DNA of 50,451 nt, taken from NCBI GenBank assembly GCA_964350735.1, contig CAYGKO010000003.1:1-50451 (forward strand), read 5' to 3'. The translations under genes and the position numbers were made by a program. Every line of letters starts with the position of its first letter. Position 1 is the stretch's first letter. Origin of the DNA: an uncultured Candidatus Saccharibacteria bacterium (GTDB taxonomy: Bacteria; Patescibacteriota; Minisyncoccia; Phycocordibacterales; UBA918). The notes below the pieces were generated by a model, which had not been told where the DNA came from, did no database searches, and was given only the letters and a program-made list of their open reading frames with translations. Shown here in pieces: positions 2,820 through 16,760 of the stretch.

Positions 2820-5071
2820 TATCCCCGCCACGCTTGTAAAATGTCTTCATCTTTCGCCTTATTCTCAGATAATCCTTGTGTTACAAACGGTAGAAACAAA
2901 TTACGCAAAGTGGCGCCACTGACTGCTCGGTCTAAAACATACAATGTCTCTAGCCGAGGACGATCGATTGTATTAAGAGGCTGATCAGACATCAAGCTCA
3001 TGTCGAACTTAAATAGTAACGTATATAAAAATTCTTCTGGTGGCATTACGGCAAAATAACGATGCAGTAACGCTTCAAAATAACCACCAGGGGCATCTAA
3101 CTGACTCCTAAATACTAAGGTGTCATTTCCACACGCAAATGCGTAATAACCATCATCGAGATACACGTACCAACATTCGGCAAAGACATCGTCAAGTGTC
3201 GCGAACATTATTTGCAACCCTTCAAGTCCCAAGCGATTATCGATCCAGCCAACAAATACCCCTTCTGGTTCCAGTCGATCACTTACTGCTTGAAACACAT
3301 CCTTCGTCCACAGCTTGTTGGCTGAAAAATATGCCGGGGTGGTGACGGTATTAACAATCAAGTCATACGTATCATTAGATGTTAGTAGTGTTACCAATGC
3401 ATCTTGAATAACCAGATCAACATGTGATTTTTGCAGCAACCTGTCATTAAGTGGCTCAAAATATCTTGCCGCTTCTTGCATGACCGGATTGATCTCTGCC
3501 ACAGTCACCTGATCGTAATGCCCTGCAACCGCAGCTGCCGTCACCCCGGTACCCAACCCAAATACGAGAGCTGACTCATGTTCTGCTGTGAGCCAAGCTC
3601 CCACTTCACCAACCGTCGCTTCGAGGAGGGGTGTCCGTGAATACTGATTAAAACGCAGTGACCGATACCCATTAAACAACAGCGTCGTTTCGTTACCTTC
3701 AGATACAATCGTTACATCATTGCCAAACTGGCGGTACTCAGTCACTGTCCTGACTGCATTATGATTTACTCCGGCTGCTACATATTCCGGCAACTCATGA
3801 TACGCTACATTACCTAGATATGTAGGCCATGCATGTACGGTCAAGATTGAAATCAAAACTAACAAACCACCTAAAAAAACTTCTTGGAATCCATGTCGCT
3901 TGTTGTACCAAATAGCTACGATATACACCACTCCCACAGCCACCAAACATACCACTGGAATAGCTACCCAAGAAAAAAGCCCGTAGGTGAACAGCAGAAA
4001 CCCGAGCGCATTACCGAGTGCTGCTATCGCTAAACATTTTTCGAGAGAAATCTTTTGATTCTGTGCAACCAAAGCAGGTACCGTAGCCCCAAATAAACTC
4101 ATGACCGGGAGAATGACTAATGCGACAAGTAGAAATTTTAACAATACCACTACAGCGAGGCTGAGCGGGACTGATTCATACCCTAACGCAAACACTTGCA
4201 CATATGACGCATACAGTACAGTTGTCAGAGCAAGCACAATTGGAAGCAGTGTAAGGAGCCGTGTAAGGGTCAACCGGAAACAGGAAACTACGGCCGTTCC
4301 CACCGCCACACTCAATAGCATCACTGATAAAATCAGGGCAAAATTTTCTTGCAGCGGTCCAATTGTCCGTTCCAGGGTCGCGATAATTGCTAGCTGGACT
4401 ACCCCACTTGCTACACTTAAGATCCCGAGCACTGCATAATCCACGCGACATTTTCTATCAACCGGTTCAAGAACAGTTCGCTGTGCTTCCAAAGGAGAAT
4501 CTATCCACGACAGTAGTCCGGCGATACAAAAGTTGACACCAGCAAAGACCAGTAGGCTAGTTGAGATACCAAGCGATCTAATCAGTAAATACTCAACCAC
4601 CAACACTGCCAGAGCTGCCCCAATGTTATATAATATATAGGTAAGAGTAAAACCCTCCTTCTTCAGACAATAAAACTGGATGTACTTAGTAAATAACGGT
4701 GTTGTAAAGCCGATTAAAAACGCTGGCAAAATCAGCGTAAGCATCGTAAAAAGGAGAAGGTTAATGGACTCAGTAAATGGAAGGGCTGCGGCCAACTGCG
4801 TGATCGTTAACCCCAGCCACTGCACTATAAAAAATACCAGGACTGCGTACAAACCAATTCCCAATTCAATATACTGCAACCGAGCTGTCTGATGACTAGA
4901 ACGATACGCTCCGACCGCCATACCGACAAAAAAGACAGTCAGCATGGCGCTCGCTACATAAAAAACACTCCCTATATACGATGTAAGGAGTCTAAAATAT
5001 AACAACTCGTAAGCGATACCGCTGACTCCCGAGAGGAGCGCCAGGGCTGGTAAAAAGCGATACATGTACAA
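2816..5071 (-). CDS. Fusion of a polytopic membrane domain with a spermidine-synthase-like SAM-fold domain
   Basis: 751-aa ORF. The first ~430 aa are serial TM helices. The C-terminal part has VFGLGTGVTAAAVAG (GxGxG), VTVAEINP and YDLIVNTVTTP, matching the spermidine synthase / class I methyltransferase pattern. Confidence 0.8.
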   Translation of the reverse strand: MYMYRFLPALALLSGVSGIAYELLYFRLLTSYIGSVFYVASAMLTVFFVGMAVGAYRSSHQTARLQYIELGIGLYAVLVFFIVQWLGLTITQLAAALPFTESINLLLFTMLTLILPAFLIGFTTPLFTKYIQFYCLKKEGFTLTYILYNIGAALAVLVVEYLLIRSLGISTSLLVFAGVNFCIAGLLSWIDSPLEAQRTVLEPVDRKCRVDYAVLGILSVASGVVQLAIIATLERTIGPLQENFALILSVMLLSVAVGTAVVSCFRLTLTRLLTLLPIVLALTTVLYASYVQVFALGYESVPLSLAVVVLLKFLLVALVILPVMSLFGATVPALVAQNQKISLEKCLAIAALGNALGFLLFTYGLFSWVAIPVVCLVAVGVVYIVAIWYNKRHGFQEVFLGGLLVLISILTVHAWPTYLGNVAYHELPEYVAAGVNHNAVRTVTEYRQFGNDVTIVSEGNETTLLFNGYRSLRFNQYSRTPLLEATVGEVGAWLTAEHESALVFGLGTGVTAAAVAGHYDQVTVAEINPVMQEAARYFEPLNDRLLQKSHVDLVIQDALVTLLTSNDTYDLIVNTVTTPAYFSANKLWTKDVFQAVSDRLEPEGVFVGWIDNRLGLEGLQIMFATLDDVFAECWYVYLDDGYYAFACGNDTLVFRSQLDAPGGYFEALLHRYFAVMPPEEFLYTLLFKFDMSLMSDQPLNTIDRPRLETLYVLDRAVSGATLRNLFLPFVTQGLSENKAKDEDILQAWRGY

Positions 5072-5107: not shown

Positions 5108-5950
5108 CTACTGCACAGAACCTTCTGCCAAAGCCCAATTTTTTTCAATTGCTACTCGAAATTCAGCCAATCCCTGCTCCCAACTAGCTGGATCATTTCC
5201 TGGATAGGAATCCCCCCATTGCTGCGGTGTGAGTGATGATGCTAGCGTACGAGCAAAATCAAAGTGCATCCTCGCCGATTCAGCATCACCGGTATTTAAC
5301 ATCGCCAGACCATACATATTATGCAACCAGGCATTATCAGAATCATACAACAGACCTTCTCCTAAAACCGGTATCATTTCTTGAAATTTACCTTGAGCAA
5401 AATATATCCAGGCTAAATCTACTCGCGGCCACGGTGCTTCGGGCTCATACTCAATAAAATCCTTAAACGCCTCTTCCGCGGCGGTCCAATCATCATCGCT
5501 GCCGGTCTTACGAGCACGATATCCATACACCAATCCCAACATATAGTTTGGATTAATTTCAGCTTCAGGAAATTCTTTTACTTGTGATTCAAAGTTTTCA
5601 GTTGCTTCGCTAAACCTGCCCAAGATAAAATTGACTCGCCCTAGCTGGTACCAAAGTGCCGGGTTAGCTTTCGAATCTTTTTCTACTGCCGCTTCATAAT
5701 AGTCTTTTGCTTTAAAAATGTCATAGGGCCCAGCCGGATCATCGTCATGATTAAAGTAGTACTCTCCTTTTTCAAACAATTCTACAGCTGAAAGTTCTAT
5801 CACATCTTCTGAAAAACTGGTTTCTTTTAGGGTAGTTTCAGCCAAATTATTTGTAGTCAAATAGACTAAGAGTAACCCGACTATAATAGAACCCATCACC
5901 ATCGTGACATAATCTTTTTGAGCTTTGAAAGCAGTAAAATACTTATTCAT
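5108..5950 (-). CDS. Membrane-anchored TPR-repeat protein
   Basis: 280-aa ORF with an N-terminal TM helix (VTMVMGSIIVGLLLVYL). TPR-like repeats follow (YYEAAVEKDSKANPALWYQLGRVNFILGRFSEATENF, AWIYFAQGKFQEMIPVL). Confidence 0.7.
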   Translation of the reverse strand: MNKYFTAFKAQKDYVTMVMGSIIVGLLLVYLTTNNLAETTLKETSFSEDVIELSAVELFEKGEYYFNHDDDPAGPYDIFKAKDYYEAAVEKDSKANPALWYQLGRVNFILGRFSEATENFESQVKEFPEAEINPNYMLGLVYGYRARKTGSDDDWTAAEEAFKDFIEYEPEAPWPRVDLAWIYFAQGKFQEMIPVLGEGLLYDSDNAWLHNMYGLAMLNTGDAESARMHFDFARTLASSLTPQQWGDSYPGNDPASWEQGLAEFRVAIEKNWALAEGSVQ

Positions 5951-5977: not shown

Positions 5978-7324
5978 TTAGTCCACATTAGAATATTTCG
6001 GAAAATATTCTTCAACCAGAGCTTGAATTTCTGATCGATCTAGGTCCCATCCGAGAACAGTATTAAGTCGATCTTTGTAGACTGGATCAAATAATGACAG
6101 CGCCACCTGACTACGTAAGAAAATCAAATCCAAGTTAGTGTATGATCCGCTCACAAAGTTCGTATACGCTTTATTTTGTCGCTCTAAGAAAATAACAAAA
6201 TCTGCGTCACTGAGATATAACAATGAGTCTTCAGTAGAAAGCGGCAGTAAAGTTTCCGCAATCTCCGAACGTTCTGAAGCATCTGAGAACGACAAAGCCA
6301 GGAAAATTGCGTACTCAAGCACTGCCTGCTGGGCACGTTCAGTTTCAACAAACTGCGAATGCTCAAGGAGTGACTGATTAACTGAGCGAACCAGAGCTTC
6401 GTCAGTAAAGCCGTAATACAAAGCCTTGTGTGTGAGCTGTGCCAAAGACATGTATGCTCTAAACAAAGAGTCATCATTAATAGCAAGTGCTTCAATTTGT
6501 CCATCTTCATACTGTGCAACTACTGCTAAGACTTGGCTTTGTAAATTTTGATATACCGCCTCAGCCTCAGCTGTGGTTAAAATACTAAGAATATCTGGTG
6601 TACAAGCACCTGTTTCCGAATCAAATGCATCACGACAACTTTTAAAGAAGGCGTCGTAGATAACAAAGTCACGAGTCAAAGCAGTATTTACATGCGTCAT
6701 GTCGTACTCAATCGGTGCATCATACGGACCTCGAGCCGATAATTCTAGCAAATCAGCATAGGCCTTTTCATGGTCTGCCAATGACATGCTGGTAAAATCG
6801 TCAAATTCAATATCAATAATCTTTGGTTCCTCAGTAAAAATAACCGAAAAAACATCCTGACTATAGTTGCTGTCGGCGTATACGACAGCAAGCATCCGGA
6901 CGTAATTCGACTTGAAGAATGTTCCTTCGTCGGAATATCGTTCATTAGCGACAGCATTTTTGTAATCACGAGCGGCATTTAGGTAGTCTTTCATTTCGTA
7001 GGCAGACACAGCTGCTCTACCTTCAACCATAAGGGCAGCGTCTTCATTCAGATTTGAATCTTGTGCGGCTTGCAAAAACAACTTACGAGCTCGAGAGTAG
7101 TCTCCTTCAGCAAAGGCGAAGGATGCCTCGACGTAAGCTTCATTAGCGCCAAGATCTGGATAGAAGCCCACGTACTGCACGATCCGTGGATCATACTCAG
7201 AAACTTGAGTCTCACTATCACTCAGTAAGGTCGTACTAAATAGTGAATACCCGTAATACAACACAACTACCAAGAGCACCAAAACGATGATTCCTAAAAG
7301 CGTATTTTGGAGCGATTTGTTCAT
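5978..7324 (-). CDS. Membrane-anchored hypothetical protein with a TPR-like N-terminal region
   Basis: The track ORF is 5978..7462. I prefer the ATG at 7322-7324 (MNKSLQNTLLGIIVLVLLVVVLYYGY, a TM anchor). The 46 upstream codons look non-coding and overlap the small ORF at 7341..7517. A TPR-like segment is AEGDYSRARKLFLQAAQ. Confidence 0.65.
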   Translation of the reverse strand: MNKSLQNTLLGIIVLVLLVVVLYYGYSLFSTTLLSDSETQVSEYDPRIVQYVGFYPDLGANEAYVEASFAFAEGDYSRARKLFLQAAQDSNLNEDAALMVEGRAAVSAYEMKDYLNAARDYKNAVANERYSDEGTFFKSNYVRMLAVVYADSNYSQDVFSVIFTEEPKIIDIEFDDFTSMSLADHEKAYADLLELSARGPYDAPIEYDMTHVNTALTRDFVIYDAFFKSCRDAFDSETGACTPDILSILTTAEAEAVYQNLQSQVLAVVAQYEDGQIEALAINDDSLFRAYMSLAQLTHKALYYGFTDEALVRSVNQSLLEHSQFVETERAQQAVLEYAIFLALSFSDASERSEIAETLLPLSTEDSLLYLSDADFVIFLERQNKAYTNFVSGSYTNLDLIFLRSQVALSLFDPVYKDRLNTVLGWDLDRSEIQALVEEYFPKYSNVD

Positions 7325-7340
7325 ATTACAACAAAAATAA

Positions 7341-7517
7341 TTAACAACTTCCTTCTGGATCAGCGCCAGGTGGTATAGGCGGAGGGTCGCCAGGCTTATA
7401 GTCTGCATGCGCAGACTCAGGACCAAACGACCATACGTCATGATCAGATTGACTAAAACCAAACAGAGCTAAGGCGGATAAACTTGCAACTAGTACTTTT
7501 TTAGAAAAATTCTTCAT
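7341..7517 (-). CDS. Unannotated 58-codon ORF encoding a small signal-peptide-like, Pro-rich peptide ending in Cys
   Basis: It runs from ATG 7515-7517 to TAA 7341-7343 and encodes MKNFSKKVLVASLSALALFGFSQSDHDVWSFGPESAHADYKPGDPPPIPPGADPEGSC. It is below the 60-aa track cutoff. It starts 56 nt after the YcaO stop and ends 16 nt before the next start. There is no clear Shine-Dalgarno site. Confidence 0.35.
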   Translation of the reverse strand: MKNFSKKVLVASLSALALFGFSQSDHDVWSFGPESAHADYKPGDPPPIPPGADPEGSC

Positions 7518-7573: not shown

Positions 7574-8980
7574 TTAAGGAAAGGGGTGGGGATCAGAATT
7601 CAAAACACTTGACTGTCGCAGTCGTTTTGACTGAGTCGGCAGCTTCGCTTCATTAAAGTACATCGGCAGTAACTCTGGTACCATCACTCGAACTGAATGG
7701 TACCCCAGCGTCTGTAAAACCGGCTGCTCAAACATCGCTACGTATACATCAGACACTTCAAATGACTGTTGGATATTTTTAATCACGAGCGTTCGCAATT
7801 CCAACTCATTCAGATCACTGATTGCTTCGTGCTTTGCCGCTACAGTGGCCAGGTCCAACTTTGGACCGGAAAGTAACCAATCGATGTTATGCACATTACA
7901 TACATTGCTCCAGATCCGCATACGATCCACCACCGTGGCTGGAGACTTGAACGAATCAGCCGCGATTGGGACCACTTCGCGGTAGGAGCCAATTGTTTCG
8001 AGTTGCCATAGCCTGATACCTAAAAATTCTTTGATGGACTGAGTCATCGCAGCGTTAATTGTGCTGCCAGTGCCCGCAGTGACCGTAATAGCCGGACCAT
8101 CGCCACTCACATCTACCGCCATCAATGCGATCGTCGGTAGCTGCGACTGATTCGTAATATCAAGCAGCTGTAGCGTAACTCCCTTTTTTTTATAATGCTC
8201 AATCACTGCCGTTGTCTCTGCGTCCACAATCGTATCAGTCGCAATCTGTTCTGGCACTGTCTTAGTCAACCAGGTATGTAAAAAGGCGTCTCGTTCCAAT
8301 AACTCAAATAAGCCTCTCGTAATAGCTCCCGACTGAGTAAAGTACCCGGCGCTCCCAGCGGTATTAACGTCACGCAACACCGGCTCGTTCGTCAAAAAAC
8401 GATAATTCCACCGTGTGAGCTGAGCTGGCATGTAAACCGACTGATTACCAAGGAGCGACTTGACCCGCTCCCAACGAAACACTGACTCTGCAAGATCTGC
8501 CGGACCATCAAGTGTCATGCACTCCCGCGGCAAAACGTGATTAATACCCTGCGCCTGCAATTGAACACTGCTCGCTTTAATAAATTGCTCATCTTGATAC
8601 GCCGATTGCGGCTGCCGCTCCAACAATTCCCCCACGCTCTTTGACAATGCCTCTTCTAAATCAAAACTCACCCCTCTACTATAACCACCTAAAAAATTAA
8701 CCTTCCCGGCCGTCTCTTGTGCATCGGCCTTGGCGAACAATCGTATTGGCCAAAACGTAAACTCTCCGGCAGGTACCTGCTCAAACACAAAACGGGGCAC
8801 CTTCAGGAGCCTTTTTTTATACAGATACTGCACCACTGACTGCCACAAATACGGCACTGGGTAATCTTCATTATGTGAAGCAAACATTGTCTTTGACCGT
8901 AACTCATCACCACTCAATAGCCGTATACTGATCCCGTACAGTATTTTTGTTATCACTGAAATGGGCGCTTTAAATTTCAT
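7574..8980 (-). CDS. YcaO-domain protein (ATP-dependent amide-backbone activating enzyme family) with a C-terminal PxPxP motif
   Basis: 468-aa ORF with GGYSRGVSFDLEEALSKSVGELLER and SAGYFTQSGAITRGLFELLERDAFLHTW. The C-terminus is ...NSDPHPFP. The start codon overlaps the upstream gene's stop by 11 nt. Confidence 0.85.
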   Translation of the reverse strand: MKFKAPISVITKILYGISIRLLSGDELRSKTMFASHNEDYPVPYLWQSVVQYLYKKRLLKVPRFVFEQVPAGEFTFWPIRLFAKADAQETAGKVNFLGGYSRGVSFDLEEALSKSVGELLERQPQSAYQDEQFIKASSVQLQAQGINHVLPRECMTLDGPADLAESVFRWERVKSLLGNQSVYMPAQLTRWNYRFLTNEPVLRDVNTAGSAGYFTQSGAITRGLFELLERDAFLHTWLTKTVPEQIATDTIVDAETTAVIEHYKKKGVTLQLLDITNQSQLPTIALMAVDVSGDGPAITVTAGTGSTINAAMTQSIKEFLGIRLWQLETIGSYREVVPIAADSFKSPATVVDRMRIWSNVCNVHNIDWLLSGPKLDLATVAAKHEAISDLNELELRTLVIKNIQQSFEVSDVYVAMFEQPVLQTLGYHSVRVMVPELLPMYFNEAKLPTQSKRLRQSSVLNSDPHPFP

Positions 8981-10796
8981 AGTTTTTCATAGTGCGAATC
9001 GCTCCAATAATCACGTGCGCAGCGGCATCAATAGCACACACTCGACTAGTAGCTGATTCCCGAATACCGCCACGGAACTGTGCTCGCACAGACTCGCGCA
9101 TGTGATACATATTAGTGTCATTGTATTGCATCATCAGTAACCATGACACCAATTGCGGACACAGCGCCGGATATTCTGCACCCCGGCTCGCGAACACTTC
9201 ATACAACTTCGCCACCCCGCGAGCATAGCGCACCGGTTGATCTATCGCCTCTACACCTACTCCCATCCAGTCAGACTGTACTTCAGCCAGCACCTGCGCT
9301 GCTCCCGCTTCAAAATCAATGGTTACGGCATCTGCCCACACCACACTGGCATAGGGTATATCTCCATAGGTTTTGTTCGTTGTCTGTAATTTTTGCACAA
9401 AACGATCCCAGATCTGAGTAGTAGCTTCCTTGCCGGCAGTAATTCTCAGGTACTGCAACATCGTAATAACATCATGATCAACTGACCAGTCAACGCTCGC
9501 CATCAGCAACTGATAGAATACGTTATCGTTGAGTGCGTGAGCTAACTCTGCCAGATACAACACGGCCACAGGGTTGTCCTTAATCCGATCAGGCTGCCTC
9601 TTATAGATAGCTGCGAGATATTCTGCAACTGCCCCCGCCGCCCGCAGTGAATCATCATCATTAAAGACTTTCCCATACTGTGCTAACGCCACTCCCGCTA
9701 AGGTGAGCTTGGTTGGGTCAAAGTGTGTTACCACACCCTGCCGGGGACACATCACTGCCGGAATATTACCGTCTGACTCCTGCAGTCGACATAACCACCC
9801 CGCCGTTTGTTCGAGTAATGCTTTGACTGACTCCTTAGTCTGTTCCGTCAACTCTCGCTGTACCAGTGGCCCAACCCCTTGCTGCACCGCTTCTGTATCT
9901 ACCGTATACGATCGCACTGGTGATACCGACAAATCATACGTTTCATCGTCTTCGATCCCTGCTTTTTCAAGCAAAGCTTGCCTGTACTCCGCGGCTGTTG
10001 CGAACGTCGCAATGTTAAAAATCTCTGGCAAAAACACCCCCCGCCGGCCACTGGCTCCGACTACAAACACCGCCTGATCAATCACCTCAGATAGGCCAAA
10101 ATTTTTTCTTAGCGGCGTGCGTAGTTTTGAAATACATACCAGCTCCAGCGTCGCGATGACCGCATCTGCTTGACTAAGTGGTTTGAAACGTTGATCATGT
10201 TGCACCGCTTTGCACACAAGTGGCAACGCCTCTGCTACAGACAAGCCACACTGAACCGCTGAACCACGCAACTCTCCATCTACCCACACCGCTACACCAA
10301 CATCTCCTTGCAACATAAAATCCGAAGGAAAAGCTTCGGTACTAACCACATCAACTTCTTGTGTATCCATAGACTGCTGCTGCCAGAAGCACTCCTTCAC
10401 CAACCAGACTTCCGCTGCAGTAAGCTCTCGATCAAAATACACTGGGTCTTGTATATCCTGCGCATTTGTTACTTCTATATTAAAATGACTGGTATGTAGC
10501 GATGACTGATTAACAAAGTCGCCCCGCCGCGCAGACACTACAACACTCGGTTCACCACCTTCACAAACAACAAAACATGCGGTCGGAGCTAGCCCTTGAA
10601 CTACTGTTAGTTGCAGACATACTCGCTTTGCCGCAACAGTGACCGCAACCACTGCCCCTAGCGACAGCTGCTGCGTATAATGCCGCAAGATTGCCTCCAG
10701 CTCTCCTTGGTCAGACCTCGGTAGGCTTGGCCATACCCTATGTATCATATCTAAAACCTCCTGTTCTGAGCTTTTAGTGGCTTGTGCCCACTTCAT
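8970..10796 (-). CDS. Three-part fusion: unassigned N-terminal region, AMMECR1-like domain, and a C-terminal (alpha/alpha) toroid-like repeat domain
   Basis: 608-aa ORF. The AMMECR1 pattern is GVAVWVDGELRGSAVQCG ... HDQRFKPLSQAD ... GRRGVFLPEIF, with Ser where LRGCIG normally has Cys. The C-terminal ~300 aa carries AGWLCRLQESDGNIPA and GGIRESATSRVCAIDAAAHVIIG, reminiscent of prenyltransferase/terpene-cyclase-type toroids. No LanC zinc motifs are present. Confidence 0.7.
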   Translation of the reverse strand: MKWAQATKSSEQEVLDMIHRVWPSLPRSDQGELEAILRHYTQQLSLGAVVAVTVAAKRVCLQLTVVQGLAPTACFVVCEGGEPSVVVSARRGDFVNQSSLHTSHFNIEVTNAQDIQDPVYFDRELTAAEVWLVKECFWQQQSMDTQEVDVVSTEAFPSDFMLQGDVGVAVWVDGELRGSAVQCGLSVAEALPLVCKAVQHDQRFKPLSQADAVIATLELVCISKLRTPLRKNFGLSEVIDQAVFVVGASGRRGVFLPEIFNIATFATAAEYRQALLEKAGIEDDETYDLSVSPVRSYTVDTEAVQQGVGPLVQRELTEQTKESVKALLEQTAGWLCRLQESDGNIPAVMCPRQGVVTHFDPTKLTLAGVALAQYGKVFNDDDSLRAAGAVAEYLAAIYKRQPDRIKDNPVAVLYLAELAHALNDNVFYQLLMASVDWSVDHDVITMLQYLRITAGKEATTQIWDRFVQKLQTTNKTYGDIPYASVVWADAVTIDFEAGAAQVLAEVQSDWMGVGVEAIDQPVRYARGVAKLYEVFASRGAEYPALCPQLVSWLLMMQYNDTNMYHMRESVRAQFRGGIRESATSRVCAIDAAAHVIIGAIRTMKNYEI

Positions 10797-10809
10797 ACTG
10801 ATCGAGTGA

Positions 10810-11586
10810 TTACCATTCTGTTTGTTGCAAATCTTCTAGTTCAGCTCTAAACACTTCATCCTGGAGTAAAAATTCCCAGTACCCTTGGGCTAGTGCCACT
10901 CCGGCCATCGTGTCACTTGGATAATGTACCCCGGCAACTTCCCGATTAGTAGCGATACGTAGCGCATCAGCCGTATATACCTCAGCCTGGTCTGGATCCA
11001 AATATCCCAAAACAAAAGCTACAAAATGCGCCTGACTTGAGTGGCGACTTGGATACGCCGGATGGTCCGGCACCGGAATACTGCTCTCAAGCTGGTCGTC
11101 AAGCAGACTGGGTCGAATGCGGTCGAACGTCGTCTTATAATGAAAGATCGCATAATCAAACCGAAACAAATGCTTTTTTAATAACGCCCCGGTCAGCGGT
11201 TTGTCACGCATCACTACTCCGATTGATGACGATCCTAGTCGAAAATCTTCTAATGCGACCTCCGCCACAATTTCCGCTTCTTGCGTCTCAGTTCGATCGG
11301 TTTGTAATTGATGTAAATAAACTAGTTCTTCAGTGACGACCGCTCCAACTGGTGGTGGTAGCAAATCGAATTGTGATAAAAATGTCACCATTGACGCGGG
11401 TGGCTGGAATGTAAATGTCACGTACTGATCACCCAATACTTGGGTACCCGAAAAAGTATCAGCCGCAACTTCTGGTGAGGCTGATTCTTCAGTCGTATTC
11501 TCTGTGTGCAAACCTTGCATCACCAACAGCCCCATAAATAAAACTACTGTCAGCCCCACGATCTGTAAGCATTCAAAGCCTTTCAT
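10810..11586 (-). CDS. Secreted or membrane-anchored PAP2-superfamily phosphatase (acid phosphatase / haloperoxidase-like fold)
   Basis: PAP2 motifs are KTTFDRIRP, YPSRHS and NREVAGVHYPSD. I prefer the ATG at 11584-11586 (MKGFECLQIVGLTVVLFMGLLVM); the track start is 11637. Its stop lies 13 nt before the next start. Confidence 0.8.
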   Translation of the reverse strand: MKGFECLQIVGLTVVLFMGLLVMQGLHTENTTEESASPEVAADTFSGTQVLGDQYVTFTFQPPASMVTFLSQFDLLPPPVGAVVTEELVYLHQLQTDRTETQEAEIVAEVALEDFRLGSSSIGVVMRDKPLTGALLKKHLFRFDYAIFHYKTTFDRIRPSLLDDQLESSIPVPDHPAYPSRHSSQAHFVAFVLGYLDPDQAEVYTADALRIATNREVAGVHYPSDTMAGVALAQGYWEFLLQDEVFRAELEDLQQTEW

Positions 11587-11640
11587 CACACCAGTATACT
11601 GCAAAATATAGCAAATACACTCCCACAGTCCCAACATAGG

Positions 11641-11681
11641 AAAAAATAAAAAAATCCCCCTTCGAACCGCAGTTCGAAGGG
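11641..11681 (-). terminator. Intrinsic terminator of the lipoprotein gene
   Basis: The stem is CCCTTCGAAC/GTTCGAAGGG (11658-11681) with a 4-nt loop. On the minus strand it is followed by a T-rich run (plus-strand A-run 11641-11655). Confidence 0.65.
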
Positions 11682-11703
11682 AGAGTCATACTTTTGCTGC
11701 AGA

Positions 11704-12213
11704 TCAGCTGATCGGGCCGGAATAGTCGCCGTCACAGTTTGTCCCGCAGGCGCCGCCAGTCCGGGCTTTCGCCTTGACCGTATTTCCGTCAACCCGACCA
11801 TCGAGCGAGCCGGGAAAGCGGCCAAAGCGGCCGAGATTGAATTCCAGCCCACTGATCGAGAAGGTGCCATCTGAATTGATCCGCGCACTGCCGCCCCGCT
11901 TGACGAGGTCGCCCGGCTTAACCGTCACAACGCCGTCAACCACGACAAGATTGATCGGCTTTCCGTGATCCCAATTCGTATTTTTCAGGGTACCGGAGCC
12001 GCCAGTCACCCCAGCTGCTGGCGTCGGCGTCGGATCATCTGCGATTGCCACAGTCGTTACCGATCCTACCGCAGCTGGTTCAGCAGGTGCTGCCGCAGCA
12101 GGCGCCTGATTCGCAGCAGATGCTGGGGCTTCAGTTTTGACAGTTTTGCCGCAAGCGGCAAGAGCGAGTGCAACGACTGCACAAGCGATCAGGCTTGGTG
12201 TTTTGATCGACAT
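11704..12213 (-). CDS. Lipoprotein of unknown function, encoded in GC-rich DNA
   Basis: I prefer the ATG at 12211-12213, with AAGGAG 7 nt upstream. MSIKTPSLIACAVVALALAACGK carries a lipobox (LAAC). An Ala/Pro-rich linker precedes a C-terminal domain with no recognisable motif. The track start at 12291 lies beyond the SD site. Confidence 0.75.
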   Translation of the reverse strand: MSIKTPSLIACAVVALALAACGKTVKTEAPASAANQAPAAAAPAEPAAVGSVTTVAIADDPTPTPAAGVTGGSGTLKNTNWDHGKPINLVVVDGVVTVKPGDLVKRGGSARINSDGTFSISGLEFNLGRFGRFPGSLDGRVDGNTVKAKARTGGACGTNCDGDYSGPIS

Positions 12214-12338
12214 GATCAATCTCCTTGTTAGCACCATGAGGTGCGTGTGATGTCCCACGTAGGACGACAGCCCAACGTGGGCTAAGAACACCTCATCTCC
12301 CCTTAAATAATTTGGAAATCTGGGTGAGGTATAGCACC

Positions 12339-12366
12339 TTTATACACCAATATAAAAAAAAGTCAA
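12339..12366 (-). promoter_or_regulatory. Sigma-70-like promoter for the lipoprotein gene
   Basis: On the minus strand: TTGACT (12366-12361), a 16-nt spacer, then TATAAA (12344-12339). This implies a 5' leader of about 120 nt. Confidence 0.45.
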
Positions 12367-12403
12367 CACTTGTACCGGTGTTTTGATCTCAAAAATTTGA
12401 CAT

Positions 12404-12467
12404 GAAAAAAGACCGTATAACCTGATCTTCGTCGTAGCACCGGTGTGCTGAAGTAGTTATTCGGTCT
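12404..12467 (-). terminator. Long-hairpin intrinsic terminator closing the upstream minus-strand transcript
   Basis: AGACCGTATAAC (12410-12421) pairs with GTTATTCGGTCT (12456-12467) with one mismatch. An inner stem is AGCAC/GTGCT. On the minus strand a T6 run follows (plus-strand A-run 12405-12410). Confidence 0.5.
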
Positions 12468-12690
12468 TCGCGACCGACACGACAAATGTCGTGTCGGTCC
12501 GTTTAGATACCCGTCAGCCTAATTTCCTCTACGAAGAGGGTGAGATCCAGACTTCAAGGTGCTGTGCATAGGTTTCGAGGGAAACCAAGAGCGGTCCCCC
12601 TTCTTCAAGGAGGAGCCGTTAGAGGAATGATAACACAGACAAATATGATCGTCTAGTATAAGGGCGACAACTTGCCGCCCTTACCTTTCT
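12468..12690. ncRNA. Unclassified structured segment. It could be a long 3' UTR of the small lipoprotein gene or an independent sRNA.
   Basis: There are several perfect hairpins: GACCGACACGAC-AAAT-GTCGTGTCGGTC (12472-12499), GGTTTC-GAGG-GAAACC, TCCCCCTT-CTTC-AAGGAGGA with one G-T (wobble) pair, and AAGGGCG-N9-CGCCCTT. A 13-nt direct repeat is also present. No Rfam-type signature was recognised. Confidence 0.2.
12543..12555 (+). repeat. Copy 1 of the 13-nt direct repeat AGATCCAGACTTC
   Basis: An exact second copy lies at 12692-12704, 149 nt away. That copy overlaps the stop codon of the small lipoprotein ORF. Confidence 0.9.
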
Positions 12691-12875
12691 CAGATCCAGA
12701 CTTCCGTCTTGGGTTTAACGACCTTCATCGGTCGAACTGCCGTCGGCCTTTTGGGCTCAGTGGACTGTTCAACTCTTGGTGCCGCCTTTGACCCCAGATC
12801 AGGTGTCACAGCTCCTTGCGGAACTGCGCATCCGGCTACCCAGAGGGCGCCTAGACATAACATAAGAACTCTCAC
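12690..12875 (-). CDS. Small (61 aa) lipoprotein of unknown function
   Basis: I prefer the GTG at 12873-12875, preceded by AAGGAGAG. (M)RVLMLCLGALWVAGC carries a lipobox (VAGC). The track ORF extends to 12938, beyond the SD site. Confidence 0.5.
   Translation of the reverse strand: MRVLMLCLGALWVAGCAVPQGAVTPDLGSKAAPRVEQSTEPKRPTAVRPMKVVKPKTEVWI
12692..12704 (+). repeat. Copy 2 of the 13-nt direct repeat AGATCCAGACTTC
   Basis: Exact match to 12543-12555. Confidence 0.9.
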
Positions 12876-12943
12876 GGTTCTCTCCTTGTATGCACAGAAT
12901 GCGACGTTTCCAGGGATCTCACTCTCCTTCCACGCCACGCAAA

Positions 12944-12971
12944 ATCATACTTTAAATTTAAAATATGTCAA
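12944..12971 (-). promoter_or_regulatory. Sigma-70-like promoter for the small lipoprotein gene
   Basis: On the minus strand: TTGACA (12971-12966), a 16-nt spacer, then TATGAT (12949-12944). Confidence 0.4.
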
Positions 12972-13032
12972 TGTACCGCTAAAAAATCCAAATCCCCTAC
13001 CGCTTCTGGCGTTTTCTGGTATTCTTACGCAC

Positions 13033-14295
13033 ATGAGTAATGACAAACTATCAACCCAGCCTTATAAGGGCGTGCGGGACTTTTATCCGGATGATATGGC
13101 GGTGCAGCGCTATATGTTTGATGTCTGGAGTCACACCGCTGAAAGCTTTGGCTTTGAGCGCTATGATGCGTCGGTGCTGGAGCCAAGTAGCCTCTATAAA
13201 GCAAAAGGGGCGGAGAACGCAGAGATGGTGAATGAACAGACCTACACCTTTACTGACCGCGGTGAGCGTGAGGTAACGCTCCGCCCTGAGATGACCCCAA
13301 CGGTGGCGCGTATGATCGCCGGCAAGCGGCGCGAACTCTCCTTCCCAGTCCGCTGGTACTCCATCCCCAACCTCTTTCGCTACGAACGCGCGCAGCGAGG
13401 TCGCCTACGCGAACATTGGCAGCTGAACTGCGACATCTTTGGCAGCGATGACTACACCGCTGACGTTGAAATAATTGCACTCGCGCACCAAATCTTTATG
13501 AACTTCGGGGCTGACGAGAGCATGTTTGAAATCTTGGTGAACAATCGCCAGACGATGAAAAAAGCCTATGAGTTGCTCGGGATCACCGATGAAGACACTG
13601 TGACCGCTATTACCCGACTGAATGACCGCAAAGACAAAATTGAAGCCGCCGAATATATCTCGTCGTTAACAACGATAGTTGGTGACAGTGCGTTAGCGGC
13701 AGAAATCAAAACCATGATCGAATCAGCTGATCCTGGTGACAATGCCGTCGTAGCTGGACTGCAAGAACTGGGTATCTCTAATTTACGCATCGACCGCTCA
13801 CTAGCGCGCGGCTTCGACTACTACACTGGCACGATTTTTGAAATTAAAGACACCAACCCTGAGAACAATCGTTCGATGATGGGTGGCGGGCGCTACGATA
13901 ACCTCACCGGCCTCTTTGGTGGTGACCCCGTCTCCGGGATCGGCTTTGGCTTTGGTGATGTGACCTTAAAGAACTTCCTCGAGAGCCACGACCTCATGAC
14001 TGCCAATCTCACCTCTCCTGCCCTCACCATTCTTCCAATGGACCCAGCGTACAATCTAGCTGCACAAAAGCTGGCTGCTGCCTTCCGCGCGGCAGATATC
14101 TCAGTCTCGACTGACATCAGTGACCGCAAAGTCGGAAAGAAGCTTGATGCTGCCAACAAAGCTTTTGTTGATTACGCGATTATTCTCGGTGAAGATGAAA
14201 TCGCATCCAGCACCTACACCATGAAAAACCTCACCACTAATGAAGAGACTGCTGGGAATACGAACATCCTAAGCGACACTGTACATAATCAGTAA
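13033..14295 (+). CDS. hisS: Histidine--tRNA ligase
   Basis: Motifs are KGVRDFYPDDM, LRPEMTPTVARM, RWYSIPNLFRYERAQRGRLREHWQ and GGGRYDNL. The start is taken at MSNDKLSTQPYKG. The 108 upstream codons of the track ORF overlap the divergent lipoprotein gene and its promoter. Confidence 0.9.
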   Translation: MSNDKLSTQPYKGVRDFYPDDMAVQRYMFDVWSHTAESFGFERYDASVLEPSSLYKAKGAENAEMVNEQTYTFTDRGEREVTLRPEMTPTVARMIAGKRRELSFPVRWYSIPNLFRYERAQRGRLREHWQLNCDIFGSDDYTADVEIIALAHQIFMNFGADESMFEILVNNRQTMKKAYELLGITDEDTVTAITRLNDRKDKIEAAEYISSLTTIVGDSALAAEIKTMIESADPGDNAVVAGLQELGISNLRIDRSLARGFDYYTGTIFEIKDTNPENNRSMMGGGRYDNLTGLFGGDPVSGIGFGFGDVTLKNFLESHDLMTANLTSPALTILPMDPAYNLAAQKLAAAFRAADISVSTDISDRKVGKKLDAANKAFVDYAIILGEDEIASSTYTMKNLTTNEETAGNTNILSDTVHNQ

Positions 14296-14348
14296 TCACA
14301 TAATATCGGTTTGGTGTATTTCTGTCTAAGATTAGTAGATATGGTAAA

Positions 14349-14936
14349 ATGCCTATCACTATGCGTTATATTGTTTTTGATCTTGAGACTCAAAATATCT
14401 TCCAAGAAGTAGGGAGTAGTGACGCCACGGCGCTTGATATCTCAGTGGGGACTGTCTACGACAGTGAAACTGACACCTATACTACCGCCACTATCGATAA
14501 CCTGGAGATCCTGTGGCCCATTATCGAAAAAGCGGATGCGCTCGTCGGGTACAACAGCAACCACTTTGATATTCCCCTCTTGAATAAGTACTACCCCGGT
14601 GACCTGACGCAAATAAAAAGTATTGATATCCTCGAAGACATCCGCGCCTCGCTAGGCCGCCGACTGCGACTTGATTCGGTCGCTCAAGCTACGATTGGAG
14701 CCAAGAAAAGTGCTGACGGACTGCAAGCTGTCCGCTGGTGGCGTGAAGGCAAGATTAAGGAGATTATGAAGTACTGCGAGCAAGATGTAAAAGTGACCAA
14801 GAAAGTATTTGAATACGCGCTCGAGCATGGCCACGTGAAGTTCAAAGATGGCGCCCGCAAGCGCGAGATCCCAATCGATACCTCAGCCTGGACCACCAAA
14901 GAAGATGCGGCCATGACGCACAGCTTGCCGTTCTAA
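14349..14936 (+). CDS. DEDDy-type 3'-5' exonuclease (RNase H-like fold)
   Basis: The exonuclease motifs are IVFDLETQN (Exo I), LVGYNSNHFDIPLL (Exo II) and YCEQDVKVTKKVF (Exo III). The start may instead be the ATG at 14361. Confidence 0.7.
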   Translation: MPITMRYIVFDLETQNIFQEVGSSDATALDISVGTVYDSETDTYTTATIDNLEILWPIIEKADALVGYNSNHFDIPLLNKYYPGDLTQIKSIDILEDIRASLGRRLRLDSVAQATIGAKKSADGLQAVRWWREGKIKEIMKYCEQDVKVTKKVFEYALEHGHVKFKDGARKREIPIDTSAWTTKEDAAMTHSLPF

Positions 14937-14938
14937 AT

Positions 14939-14978
14939 AAACCACTCAAATCCGTCCGGATTTGAGTGGTTTATTTTT
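14939..14978 (+). terminator. Intrinsic terminator after the exonuclease gene
   Basis: The stem is AAACCACTCAAATCC/GGATTTGAGTGGTTT, followed by ATTTTTG. Confidence 0.7.
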
Positions 14979-15111
14979 GAGTCAAAGGCGGGCATCCTCT
15001 TCTTACAGAAGCTGTACACTCTTTGGATACTTTCTTCCTTGCAGTCAGAAACTATCTCAAACGGTCTTGCGAAAGTACTGTTGTACTTTCTCACTCTCGC
15101 TCGAAACACGT

Positions 15112-15135
15112 AAAAAGTGACGAGGGTCACTTTTT
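15112..15135 (-). terminator. Hairpin at the 3' end of uppP
   Basis: AAAAAGTGAC-GAGG-GTCACTTTTT. It overlaps the uppP stop codon. Confidence 0.45.
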
Positions 15136-15943
15136 ACCCAAAGGCATAGAGAAACACCACTAAGCCAGCCAGGATAAATCGGTACCAGATAAACGGCCAG
15201 AGAGTGTGATTACGAACAAAGCCGATCATGAAGTGAATAGCGGCAAGCCCGGTCAAAAATGCGACCACGGCTCCGACTGACACTGCAGTCCACGCCACGC
15301 TCCCATCAGAGGTAATGAGTTCGAGCATTTTTTTTGACCCCGCTCCCAGCATAATCGGCACCGCCAGCAAAAAGGCAAAACGTGCCGCCTCACTCCGTGA
15401 CAGACCTAAGATCATACCGCCGGCAATACTAGCGCCCGAGCGCGACATGCCCGGAATCAAAGCTAATGACTGAAACAGCCCAATCTTCACTCCCCGTCTG
15501 ACATCCATCTCATTATCCTGATGCTGGTGCTGATAACGCCACTCGGCATATATAAATAGAAACGATCCAGCTACTAACACCCCAGCCACCAAGAGTGGCG
15601 AACGAAACGCACTTTCCATTAAAGACTCGAGGGACAAACCAAGGATCACAGCAGGCACGGTACCAGCTAATAGTGCATAAAGCAGTGTCAGATCACGAGG
15701 ATTAACTGGCAGTCGACTTAATCGCCGAAGTGCGGCTTGGATTAGTGTCCAGATATCTTTATGGAAATACACTATCACTGCCGAAGCAGTCGCCAGATGC
15801 AAAATAGCGTCAAACGCTAAGGCGTACTCCCCCTCAACACCAAATAACGACCGGGCAAGAATCAAATGTCCCGAAGATGAAACTGGCAAAAACTCCGTTA
15901 GTCCTTGCACCACCCCGAGACCAATAGCTTCAAAGATACTCAT
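15134..15943 (-). CDS. uppP: Undecaprenyl-diphosphate phosphatase
   Basis: GLGVVQGLTEFLPVSSSGHLIL and a polytopic membrane profile. I use the ATG at 15941-15943; the track starts at a TTG at 15952. Confidence 0.9.
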   Translation of the reverse strand: MSIFEAIGLGVVQGLTEFLPVSSSGHLILARSLFGVEGEYALAFDAILHLATASAVIVYFHKDIWTLIQAALRRLSRLPVNPRDLTLLYALLAGTVPAVILGLSLESLMESAFRSPLLVAGVLVAGSFLFIYAEWRYQHQHQDNEMDVRRGVKIGLFQSLALIPGMSRSGASIAGGMILGLSRSEAARFAFLLAVPIMLGAGSKKMLELITSDGSVAWTAVSVGAVVAFLTGLAAIHFMIGFVRNHTLWPFIWYRFILAGLVVFLYAFG

Positions 15944-16010: not shown

Positions 16011-16760
16011 ATGGAACCACACACTACCGCCCCCAAGCAATCACTCGCTATTCCGCTCGCTATCTTAGTGGGATTTGGCATGATCGCTGGTGCAATTTAT
16101 TTCTCTGGCCAGCAAACTGCCCCGGTGGCAGTAGCGCCAACCCCAGCAGCTGAAAACCAAGGTCCAGCTGCCAACCTAGACGCACTTAATCCGGTGACCG
16201 AGGACGATCACATTCGCGGCAACCCAAACGCAAAAATCATGTTAGTTGAGTATTCTGACTATGACTGTCCATTTTGTAAAAACTTCCACGAAACGATGAA
16301 TCAAATCATGGAAGAATACGGTCTGTCTGGTGAAGTGGCTTGGGTTTACCGACATTTTCCGCTTGAGCAATTACACCCGAACGCTCCGCGCGTGGCCCTT
16401 GCTTCAGAATGTGTAGCAGAACTTGGTGGTAACGATGCCTTCTGGGACTTTAGTGACCTGGTATTTGGCGAACGCGGCACCAATGAACCTACTAACCTAG
16501 ATCGACTCGGAGAATTTGCGGTTGCTGCCGGTGTATCAGAAGCAGCCTTCAACACCTGCCTCACTGAAGAACGACACCGTGATGCGGTAGCGGAAGACTT
16601 CAACAATGCGATTGAAATTGGTGGCCGTGGTACACCCCACACCATTCTCTTAGTTGGTGATCAAAAAGACGTCATCAATGGTGCCCAACCATATGGCGTT
16701 GTCCGACAAATGGTCGAGAATCTTTTGACTCAGCTTGAAGGTAAGCCAGTAGGAAGCTAG
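16011..16760 (+). CDS. Membrane-anchored DsbA/thioredoxin-fold thiol:disulfide oxidoreductase
   Basis: An N-terminal TM helix, then YSDYDCPFCKNFH with a CPFC active site. Confidence 0.8.
   Translation: MEPHTTAPKQSLAIPLAILVGFGMIAGAIYFSGQQTAPVAVAPTPAAENQGPAANLDALNPVTEDDHIRGNPNAKIMLVEYSDYDCPFCKNFHETMNQIMEEYGLSGEVAWVYRHFPLEQLHPNAPRVALASECVAELGGNDAFWDFSDLVFGERGTNEPTNLDRLGEFAVAAGVSEAAFNTCLTEERHRDAVAEDFNNAIEIGGRGTPHTILLVGDQKDVINGAQPYGVVRQMVENLLTQLEGKPVGS

Follow-up and report, generated by a model that had tools for sequence, protein, structure and literature searches.

We analyzed a window of 50,451 nucleotides (contig CAYGKO010000003.1, from an uncultured Candidatus Saccharibacteria bacterium), in which the gene for a 468-aa YcaO protein adjoins the gene for a 608-aa protein that fuses an AMMECR1 domain to an (alpha/alpha)6 toroid. 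The two genes belong to a conserved module, and we lean towards interpreting the region from ~11.6 to 5.1 kb as an operon for a modified ribosomal peptide: a variant of the thiazole/oxazole-modified microcin or linear azol(in)e-containing peptide (TOMM/LAP) systems, in which the AMMECR1-toroid protein serves as an accessory subunit. Coordinates given without a locus name are window positions, and all module genes of the window lie on the minus strand. This interpretation was preferred because the YcaO fits an ATP-dependent cyclodehydratase, the co-located peptides carry Cys in Gly/Ser/acidic contexts, and most relatives add an azoline oxidase. The variant is lineage-specific, with relatives that are nearly all labelled Patescibacteria or candidate phyla radiation (CPR). 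Functional statements on the module, here and below, are drawn from sequence, structure prediction, and gene context.

The fusion gene ends within the start of the YcaO gene, with an overlap of 11 nt at 8970..8980 that had been noticed in a preliminary description of this DNA and is indeed present. The overlap suggests that the two proteins are translationally coupled and thus co-translated. The preliminary description had also proposed a census of gene neighbourhoods. We drew 10 independent loci from ~30%-identical relatives of the YcaO, and in six of them (L001/2, L003, L005/6, L007/8, L009/10, and L032) the fusion gene was found immediately upstream of the YcaO gene, while in L033 it lay 2.6 kb away. 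Equivalent overlaps between the two genes measured 14 nt in L003, 8 nt in L007, and 4 nt in both L005 and L032. Since the adjacent order persists in six independent loci whose proteins are ~30% identical, often with overlaps of 4–14 nt, the pairing of fusion and YcaO is far beyond chance.

The YcaO protein (7574..8980) is of the SagD-like, azoline-forming type. Its assignment as a YcaO with ATP-binding signatures, made earlier from the letters alone, was borne out by PF02624, which matched it with 116.9 bits against a cut-off of 25.7 and over profile positions 3–324 of 325, and by the presence of both motifs, SKSVGELLER and GLFELLERDAF. The ATP/Mg-site residues S113, G117, E118, E121, R122, E226, R230, and D231 are invariant in the 26 members of its clade, the window copy included. 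The protein ends in NSDPHPFP, and the C-terminal PHPFP is near-invariant across the clade; a Pro-rich C-terminus characterizes azoline-forming YcaOs (PMC8442711). When the single sequence was compared with solved structures, the closest were MJ1094, MusD, TruD, and LynD, and the profile of the 26-member clade placed MusD (1e-29), TruD (9e-28), and LynD (8e-27) first, with McbD at 7e-6. The tail and the nearest structures agree with the earlier view that the protein modifies peptide backbones, and they specify azoline formation. TIGR03604 (SagD) aligns over its full length at 136 bits, below its cut-off of 219, and the YcaO of the related locus L001 likewise falls just under it with a score of 212. 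The chemistry of this YcaO is probably ordinary.

The partner gene (8970..10796) encodes an N-terminal domain of ~125 aa (10422..10796), an AMMECR1 domain at residues ~126–310 (9867..10421), and a toroid at residues ~311–608 (8970..9866, stop codon included). This three-part build, which had been read from the sequence before, was supported by an AlphaFold2 model built on the family alignment (mean predicted local distance difference test, pLDDT, 84.4; predicted template-modelling score 0.88). In Foldseek, residues ~126–310 matched the AMMECR1 structures 1zq7, 1vaj, and 1wsc with probability 1.0, and residues ~311–608 matched a generic (alpha/alpha)6 toroid, with template-modelling scores of 0.5–0.58 to the targets. 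On the window protein alone, Pfam AMMECR1 (PF01871) gave a partial profile match of 22.6 bits against a cut-off of 25; the same profile was matched by all 60 aligned family members at E<=0.01. Comparison of the single 608-aa sequence with the Protein Data Bank (PDB) gave no sequence match, while the profile of the fusion family reached 1zq7 at 5e-17 and also found 1vaj and 1wsc.

A word-index search for homologues, with the single sequence and then with a 60-sequence profile, returned essentially the query alone. At E<=1e-3, an exhaustive HMMER search recovered 236 cluster representatives, and 187 of them reached 1e-10, so the family comprises at least 236 clusters. Its members are almost all 600–650 aa long and align over residues ~155–604; tests of profile, domain, and conservation were made on an alignment of 60 of them. 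The earlier observation that Ser stands in place of the Cys of the AMMECR1 signature LRGCIG is correct and general: LRGS replaces LRGC in the window (S179) and in at least 90% of the family. The other AMMECR1 motifs, RDxRF and G..LP.V, are retained in the family, and the window copy keeps D201, R203, F204, P257, and N261. In the toroid, the family invariants K530, E533, R579, D590, and H594 are kept in the window copy, which has lost the near-invariant H580, D581, and W588 as well as the QxxDGSFP motif.

We then considered whether this protein hides a known type of partner. To our knowledge, the described YcaO partners are E1-like C proteins, Ocin-ThiF-like F proteins, and TfuA. No E1-like, Ocin-ThiF, TfuA, or PqqD-type RiPP recognition element (RRE; RiPP, a ribosome-made peptide that is modified after translation) signal was found by Pfam and NCBIfam in the 608-aa protein or its neighbours. 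The structural comparison matters because E1-like partners can escape recognition by sequence (PMC8442711); the top 50 Foldseek matches of the fusion model included no E1-like protein, TruD, or LynD. These searches agree with the earlier statement that the upstream protein is none of the known partners. The N-terminal ~125 aa form a real conserved domain in the fusion family, with a predicted alpha-alpha-beta3(-beta2) fold. Modelled separately, this domain reached a pLDDT of 67, and a fold search of the PDB gave no match (best E 0.6); these searches gave no evidence for a PqqD-like RRE, at a model confidence that was only moderate.

The best Foldseek matches of the toroid were the AprG transaldolase, cellobiose 2-epimerase, squalene-hopene cyclase, GH88, and GH76, and the match to AprG reflects the generic fold only. 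Weak matches to QW-like repeats (SQHop_cyclase_C, Prenyltrans, and TED_complement) were seen, and the Prenyltrans profile matched one of 60 family members at E=0.008. No conserved Cys was found in the toroid across the family alignment. We rejected membership in the LanC-like proteins or the prenyltransferase beta-subunits, since there are no conserved Cys ligands and no LanC profile match.

Two observations concern the N-terminal end of the fusion. The public gene call (P0001, 592 aa) starts at Met17, which leaves the stretch 10749..10796 ambiguous; because the gene caller chose Met17, the exact start of the gene is uncertain. The Met17 start leaves a gap of 62 nt from the stop of the preceding PAP2 gene, as against 13 nt with the 608-aa start. 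Elsewhere, short fusions of ~550 aa, which lack the N-terminal domain, were seen in four metagenome-assembled genomes (MAGs) of Moranbacteria or Patescibacteria and in L023, a short contig labelled Bdellovibrionales (L021:5899-7551, L022:5106-6749, L023:2575-4245, L025:5803-7455, and L026:1522-3195). None of them has an adjoining gene for YcaO or for the two other module products described below, the small peptide and X370, and this suggests that the N-terminal domain ties the fusion protein to the peptide system.

In the relatives, the pair sits within a wider module. Loci L001, L003, L005, L007, L009, L012, and L032 have the order SagB, fusion, YcaO, peptide, X370, and variants of it were found in L013, L027, L029, and L033. 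The nitroreductase neighbours belong to the SagB family (TIGR03605, 123–140 bits against a cut-off of 78). Downstream of the YcaO gene, or of the fusion gene where no YcaO is present, lies a small open reading frame (ORF) of 60–120 aa. Its products share a common design in about 20 loci: a Lys/Arg-rich start, a hydrophobic helix resembling a transmembrane (TM) segment, a spacer, an A-x-A-D-(V/A)-P junction, and an acidic Gly/Ser/Cys-rich tail, as in ...NVFADDVAPPSESGSSCGCESGGSSSA and ...EAKADVPPPNACDCSECESGCESGSCE. The peptide gene is followed by that of a membrane-anchored, TPR-like protein of ~370 aa, which we call X370, and a membrane-anchored TPR protein of ~270 aa is often nearby, being linked to the module in at least 14 loci besides the window.

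The window holds counterparts of these three genes, which the preliminary description had missed. The first encodes a precursor-like peptide of 58 aa (7341..7517; MKNFSKKVLVASLSALALFGFSQSDHDVWSFGPESAHADYKPGDPPPIPPGADPEGSC), with a signal- or anchor-like N-terminus, an A-x-A-D junction, and an acidic Pro/Gly tail that ends in Ser-Cys (...PEGSC); it sits exactly between the YcaO gene and the X370-like gene. A design rule written post hoc, after the peptides had been seen, was met by one of the 413 small ORFs in the window and by 10 of 11 family peptides. The second (5978..7324) encodes, from an ATG at 7324, a HemY_N-like, membrane-anchored TPR-like protein of 448 aa, a distant homologue of X370 that hmmsearch matched with 25.6 bits in two co-linear segments. 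The third (5108..5950) encodes a membrane-anchored TPR protein of 280 aa that is homologous over its full length to the module-linked TPR proteins of ~270 aa (blastp E 7e-15 to 3e-37). A hidden Markov model (HMM) search of all ORFs found no SagB dehydrogenase in the window, nor were a rhodanese or the phosphoribosyltransferase-propeller fusion described below found there.

The composition of the module varies among relatives. A fusion of ~550 aa between a phosphoribosyltransferase (PRTase, PF00156) and a PQQ-like beta-propeller recurs beside the AMMECR1-toroid, peptide, and X370 genes (L014:4245-5900(-), L016:3652-5334(-), L019:7816-9480(-), L024:4254-5900(-), L028:1359-2996(-), L004:5516-7168(+), and L031:4276-5943(-)). 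It tends to occur where YcaO or AMMECR1-toroid is missing, and may be an alternative or additional modifying enzyme. A TM-anchored rhodanese lies beside the module in seven loci (L014:10114-10656, L019:9499-9942, L024:9383-9817, L032:8709-9167, L018:5766-6254, L028:5276-5773, and L004:10744-11121) and is followed by a DsbA-like thioredoxin in L018, L019, L024, and L028; these neighbours hint at extracytoplasmic sulfur or thiol handling of the Cys-containing peptides. In YcaO loci without AMMECR1-toroid, a Hint/intein-like protein of ~250–280 aa was seen after YcaO in the usual peptide slot (L004:2225-3061 and gene 4239-4994 of the P0029 locus). L014 carries two tandem pairs of peptide and X370-like genes (7873-8148 with 8152-9327, and 10706-11026 with 11070-12212), whose peptide cores are related yet distinct. 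The L001 module is embedded among pairs of the toxin-antitoxin or abortive-infection type (AbiEii/AbiEi and HepT/MNT, at 2864-5007 and 11892-15137).

Herein, we propose a process by which the module might act in the window. The 58-aa peptide would be the substrate. With ATP, YcaO would activate the backbone amide before the Cys, most plausibly that between Ser57 and Cys58, and the Cys thiol would attack the activated amide to form a thiazoline. Since SagB is missing from the window, no azole would be formed there: the thiazoline would either persist or undergo processing elsewhere, while in most relatives it would be oxidized to a thiazole. The AMMECR1-toroid protein would most likely act as an accessory subunit which, in a physical complex with YcaO, holds or presents the peptide, activates YcaO, or both; this role is proposed because the fusion has the gene slot, the coupling, and the occasional fused state of the canonical E1-like C protein. 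It may also add a second modification. The hydrophobic N-terminus of the peptide and its conserved junction, between A-x-A and D, would direct export and cleavage, and the two membrane-anchored TPR-like proteins would handle the product at the membrane. The signal- or anchor-like leader, the junction, and the membrane-anchored companions (elsewhere the TM-anchored rhodanese and the DsbA-like proteins) together suggest a final location of the product at the membrane or beyond it. More tentatively, the fusion could represent a new class of RiPP accessory protein or enzyme: it would bind the membrane-anchor-like leader and activate YcaO, and so take the place of the E1-like/RRE partner, or it would introduce a new modification in the acidic Cys tail, or do both.

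To view the pairing from the side of the fusion, we scanned GTDB species-representative genomes and obtained 20 fusion loci. The broad family alignment had no stretch conserved enough for a contig scan; the scan used a tight alignment of eight sequences and samples only members that carry the octapeptide RGTGKIFE, and the census of their neighbours was limited to 6-kb flanks. Seventeen of the 20 loci carry Patescibacteria/CPR names (Saccharibacteria, Parcubacteria/Paceibacterota, Moranbacteria, and Taylorbacteria), and the remaining three are one short contig labelled Bdellovibrionales and two unclassified MAGs.

Both samples include observations that weigh against a dedicated accessory subunit. 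YcaO was found within 6 kb in only 7 of the 20 fusion loci, and in L016, L018, L019, L020, and L024 the fusion, the peptide, and X370 occur without a YcaO in that range. Conversely, three of the 10 loci of the YcaO clade (L004, L031, and the P0029 locus) have SagB and YcaO without the fusion, and the PRTase/beta-propeller protein in its place. Hence the fusion is not an obligate YcaO partner. Many charged residues of the toroid are invariant, which suggests a catalytic function and not just that of a scaffold. A leader-binding domain was not identified. The window fusion itself is the most divergent of the 60 aligned members, with 43 of 66 conserved positions where the minimum of the others is 52. 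For the window peptide, which has a single Cys, the match to the peptide-family HMM was not significant (E~2), and its identification relies for this reason on the weaker evidence of position and the post-hoc design rule. Two proteins, P0104 (1131 aa) and P0158 (1055 aa), join AMMECR1-toroid head-to-tail to YcaO in one chain; we down-weighted them as 'Rosetta-stone' evidence, since each forms a cluster of its own, has no linker at the junction, and could have arisen as a read-through artefact where the two genes overlap. The preliminary description had proposed a new YcaO partner architecture, and of this proposal the conserved and coupled AMMECR1-toroid neighbour remains, though not as an obligate partner.

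The YcaO-less loci with fusion, peptide, and X370 fit an independent enzyme better than a dedicated YcaO subunit. If the fusion were such an enzyme, it would tailor the acidic Cys-containing tail of the same peptide, for example at Cys or at the C-terminus, and the YcaO would stand alone like the bottromycin enzymes. Besides those loci and the YcaO loci without a fusion, the invariant K, E, R, D, and H of the toroid and the conserved pocket motifs of AMMECR1 speak for this alternative, as does the existence of partner-independent azoline-forming YcaOs (PMC8442711). It accounts poorly, however, for the recurrent tight start-stop overlaps, the fixed gene order, and the two fused YcaO proteins. 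In the window, moreover, the fusion has lost near-invariant toroid residues and is nevertheless coupled to an intact YcaO, to which a structural or partner role is better suited. We consider an independent enzyme a serious alternative, though the less likely one. Because the window fusion lost these residues whereas the window YcaO keeps all catalytic invariants, the fusion may have kept a partner or scaffold role here and lost a catalytic one.

The same divergence raises the question of whether the window module is a decaying or re-purposed remnant that may have ceased to produce an azoline peptide. SagB, rhodanese, and PRTase-propeller are all absent from the 50 kb, the fusion keeps the fewest conserved positions of the 60 aligned members, its AMMECR1 domain scores below the Pfam threshold, and the peptide has one Cys. 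Yet none of the five module ORFs is disrupted, their order is the conserved one, and their spacing is tight; the YcaO has kept its PHPFP tail together with all ATP-site invariants, and the fusion gave a confident structure model. We therefore judge a remnant improbable. Protein-modifying YcaOs exist, and by analogy with YcaO/TfuA, which act on McrA, or with the case of E. coli YcaO and ribosomal protein S12, the pair might modify a housekeeping protein, with the small ORF incidental; CPR genomes are small, the pair is widespread in them, and the window peptide is not significantly similar in sequence to the other peptides, but this seems very improbable given that SagB and hypervariable Cys-rich small ORFs of constant design and position co-localize in about 20 loci, that both the PHPFP tail and the nearest solved structures point to peptide cyclodehydratases, and that no TfuA was found.

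We compared the accessory-subunit model with known systems. TOMM/LAP systems such as McbBCD of microcin B17, SagBCD of streptolysin S, BalhBCD, klebsazolicin, and phazolicin share with the window a SagD-type YcaO with a PxPxP tail, and with its relatives an FMN dehydrogenase of the SagB family and a small precursor whose C-terminal core is rich in Gly, Ser, and Cys; in both, an accessory gene lies immediately upstream of the YcaO gene and is coupled to it. The differences are that the window module has no E1-like C protein, Ocin-ThiF-like F protein, or detectable RRE, its accessory being AMMECR1 plus an (alpha/alpha)6 toroid, that the leader of the window type resembles a signal or membrane anchor, that the window has no dehydrogenase, and that its YcaO scores below the TIGR03604 cut-off. 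The cyanobactin heterocyclases LynD, TruD, PatD, and MusD, in which an E1-like part is fused to YcaO, provide the nearest YcaO domains of solved structure (E ~1e-27 to 1e-29) and have the same order of accessory and then YcaO; the occasional one-chain fusion also occurs here (P0104 and P0158). Their N-terminal partner, however, is E1-like with an RRE, while here it is AMMECR1-toroid, with no TruD or LynD in the top 50 of Foldseek. Stand-alone YcaOs (bottromycin BotC/BotCD) and C-less TOMM clusters resemble the window in having no canonical partner; they differ in that the neighbour seen here is specific, conserved, and tightly coupled, and may take over the partner's task. Cox et al. (2015) flagged TOMM clusters in which no C protein can be identified as poorly understood (PMC4603692).

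Within the same lineage, Sharrar et al. (2020) reported 110 YcaO-nitroreductase LAP clusters with a small precursor from 93 CPR genomes (PMC7298704), and YcaO likewise stands beside a nitroreductase in the relatives of the window. That report lists YcaO, nitroreductase, and peptidase, and makes no mention of AMMECR1-toroid, X370, the TPR proteins, or the PRTase-propeller. Thus, YcaO-nitroreductase clusters in CPR bacteria were already published (PMC7298704), and what is new here, as far as the searches went, is the AMMECR1-toroid component and the modular system around it. The suggestion, made earlier, of a new modification system holds in part: the accessory protein and its modular surroundings are undescribed, and the whole is best read as a TOMM/LAP variant rather than a wholly new system, because the module of the relatives includes a SagB-family dehydrogenase (TIGR03605) and Cys/Ser/Gly-rich precursor peptides.

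The AmmeMemoRadiSam system (TIGR04335) has in common with the fusion family the AMMECR1 fold and most pocket motifs (RDxRF and G..LP.V). The fusion family differs by Ser in place of the signature Cys, by the toroid, and by the orphan N-terminal domain, and TIGR04335 gave the window fusion a score of 26 against a cut-off of 99. The neighbours, both in the window and in those related loci that were Pfam-annotated or scanned, included neither Memo (PF01875) nor a radical-SAM activase. The toroid shares its overall fold with AprG, the AGE/cellobiose 2-epimerases, the terpene cyclases and prenyltransferase beta-subunits, and LanC; it differs in having no significant family match and no conserved Cys for a zinc site of the LanC or farnesyltransferase type. 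Its conserved YTRGTGKIFE, GGFRHD, and WIDxxxH are its own and not those of known toroid families. Full-text searches of the literature yielded no paper that pairs AMMECR1 with YcaO, in agreement with the earlier statement that no such pairing had been described; nothing relevant was obtained for AMMECR1 with RiPP or cyclodehydratase, or on the biochemistry of AmmeMemoRadiSam.

The boundaries of the window operon were examined next. A gene for a PAP2-superfamily phosphatase of 275 aa with an N-terminal TM segment (10810..11637(-); PF01569, 40 bits) lies 13 nt upstream of the fusion gene when the 608-aa start is taken, and is probably co-transcribed with it. We rejected PAP2 as a member of the module, since no homologue lies beside the module in any other locus. 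Ahead of it, a predicted intrinsic-terminator-like hairpin with a 13-bp stem and a T-run (11655..11684(-)) closes the upstream lipoprotein gene and likely marks the upstream boundary of the operon. No terminator of similar strength was found inside the gene row. A strong terminator ahead of PAP2, and none like it within the row, would fit a single transcription unit that starts with PAP2 and extends at least as far as the TPR gene.

Several neighbouring genes were also noted. Directly downstream of the TPR gene, a gene for a 751-aa fusion of an MFS-like membrane part and a spermidine-synthase-like part (NF037959 and NF002956; 2816..5071(-)) could be in the same transcription unit. Upstream of the operon, a slightly GC-richer stretch holds lipoprotein-like ORFs at 11704..12291(-) and 12690..12938(-), with the lipobox-like motifs LAAC and VAGC; the terminator at 11684-11655 comes after the first of them. 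The histidyl-tRNA synthetase ORF (12709..14295(+)) is listed with a 5' extension of ~110 aa from a TTG, and its real start is probably near 13033 (MSNDKLSTQPYKG...). A DsbA-like thioredoxin (Thioredoxin_4/DSBA, 16011..16760(+)) resembles the module-linked DsbA-like proteins found in L019 and L024 (HMM E 9e-33), but at a distance of 5 kb and on the opposite strand its link to the module is uncertain.

AMMECR1 is a widely conserved domain of unknown chemistry that is linked to human disease. The module places it beside a defined small-peptide candidate substrate, so that its function becomes directly testable, and if the fusion is a new class of RiPP accessory, this would be the first biochemical context for the domain. 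The AMMECR1-toroid protein, present in hundreds of sequences, would be a fourth type of YcaO partner or a new tailoring enzyme. CPR bacteria have very little other secondary metabolism, and the module points to a widespread peptide system among them, in which a peptide and membrane TPR proteins are combined in varying sets with YcaO/SagB, AMMECR1-toroid, PRTase-propeller, rhodanese, or DsbA-like proteins. Such a peptide system may matter for the epibiotic lifestyle of CPR bacteria.

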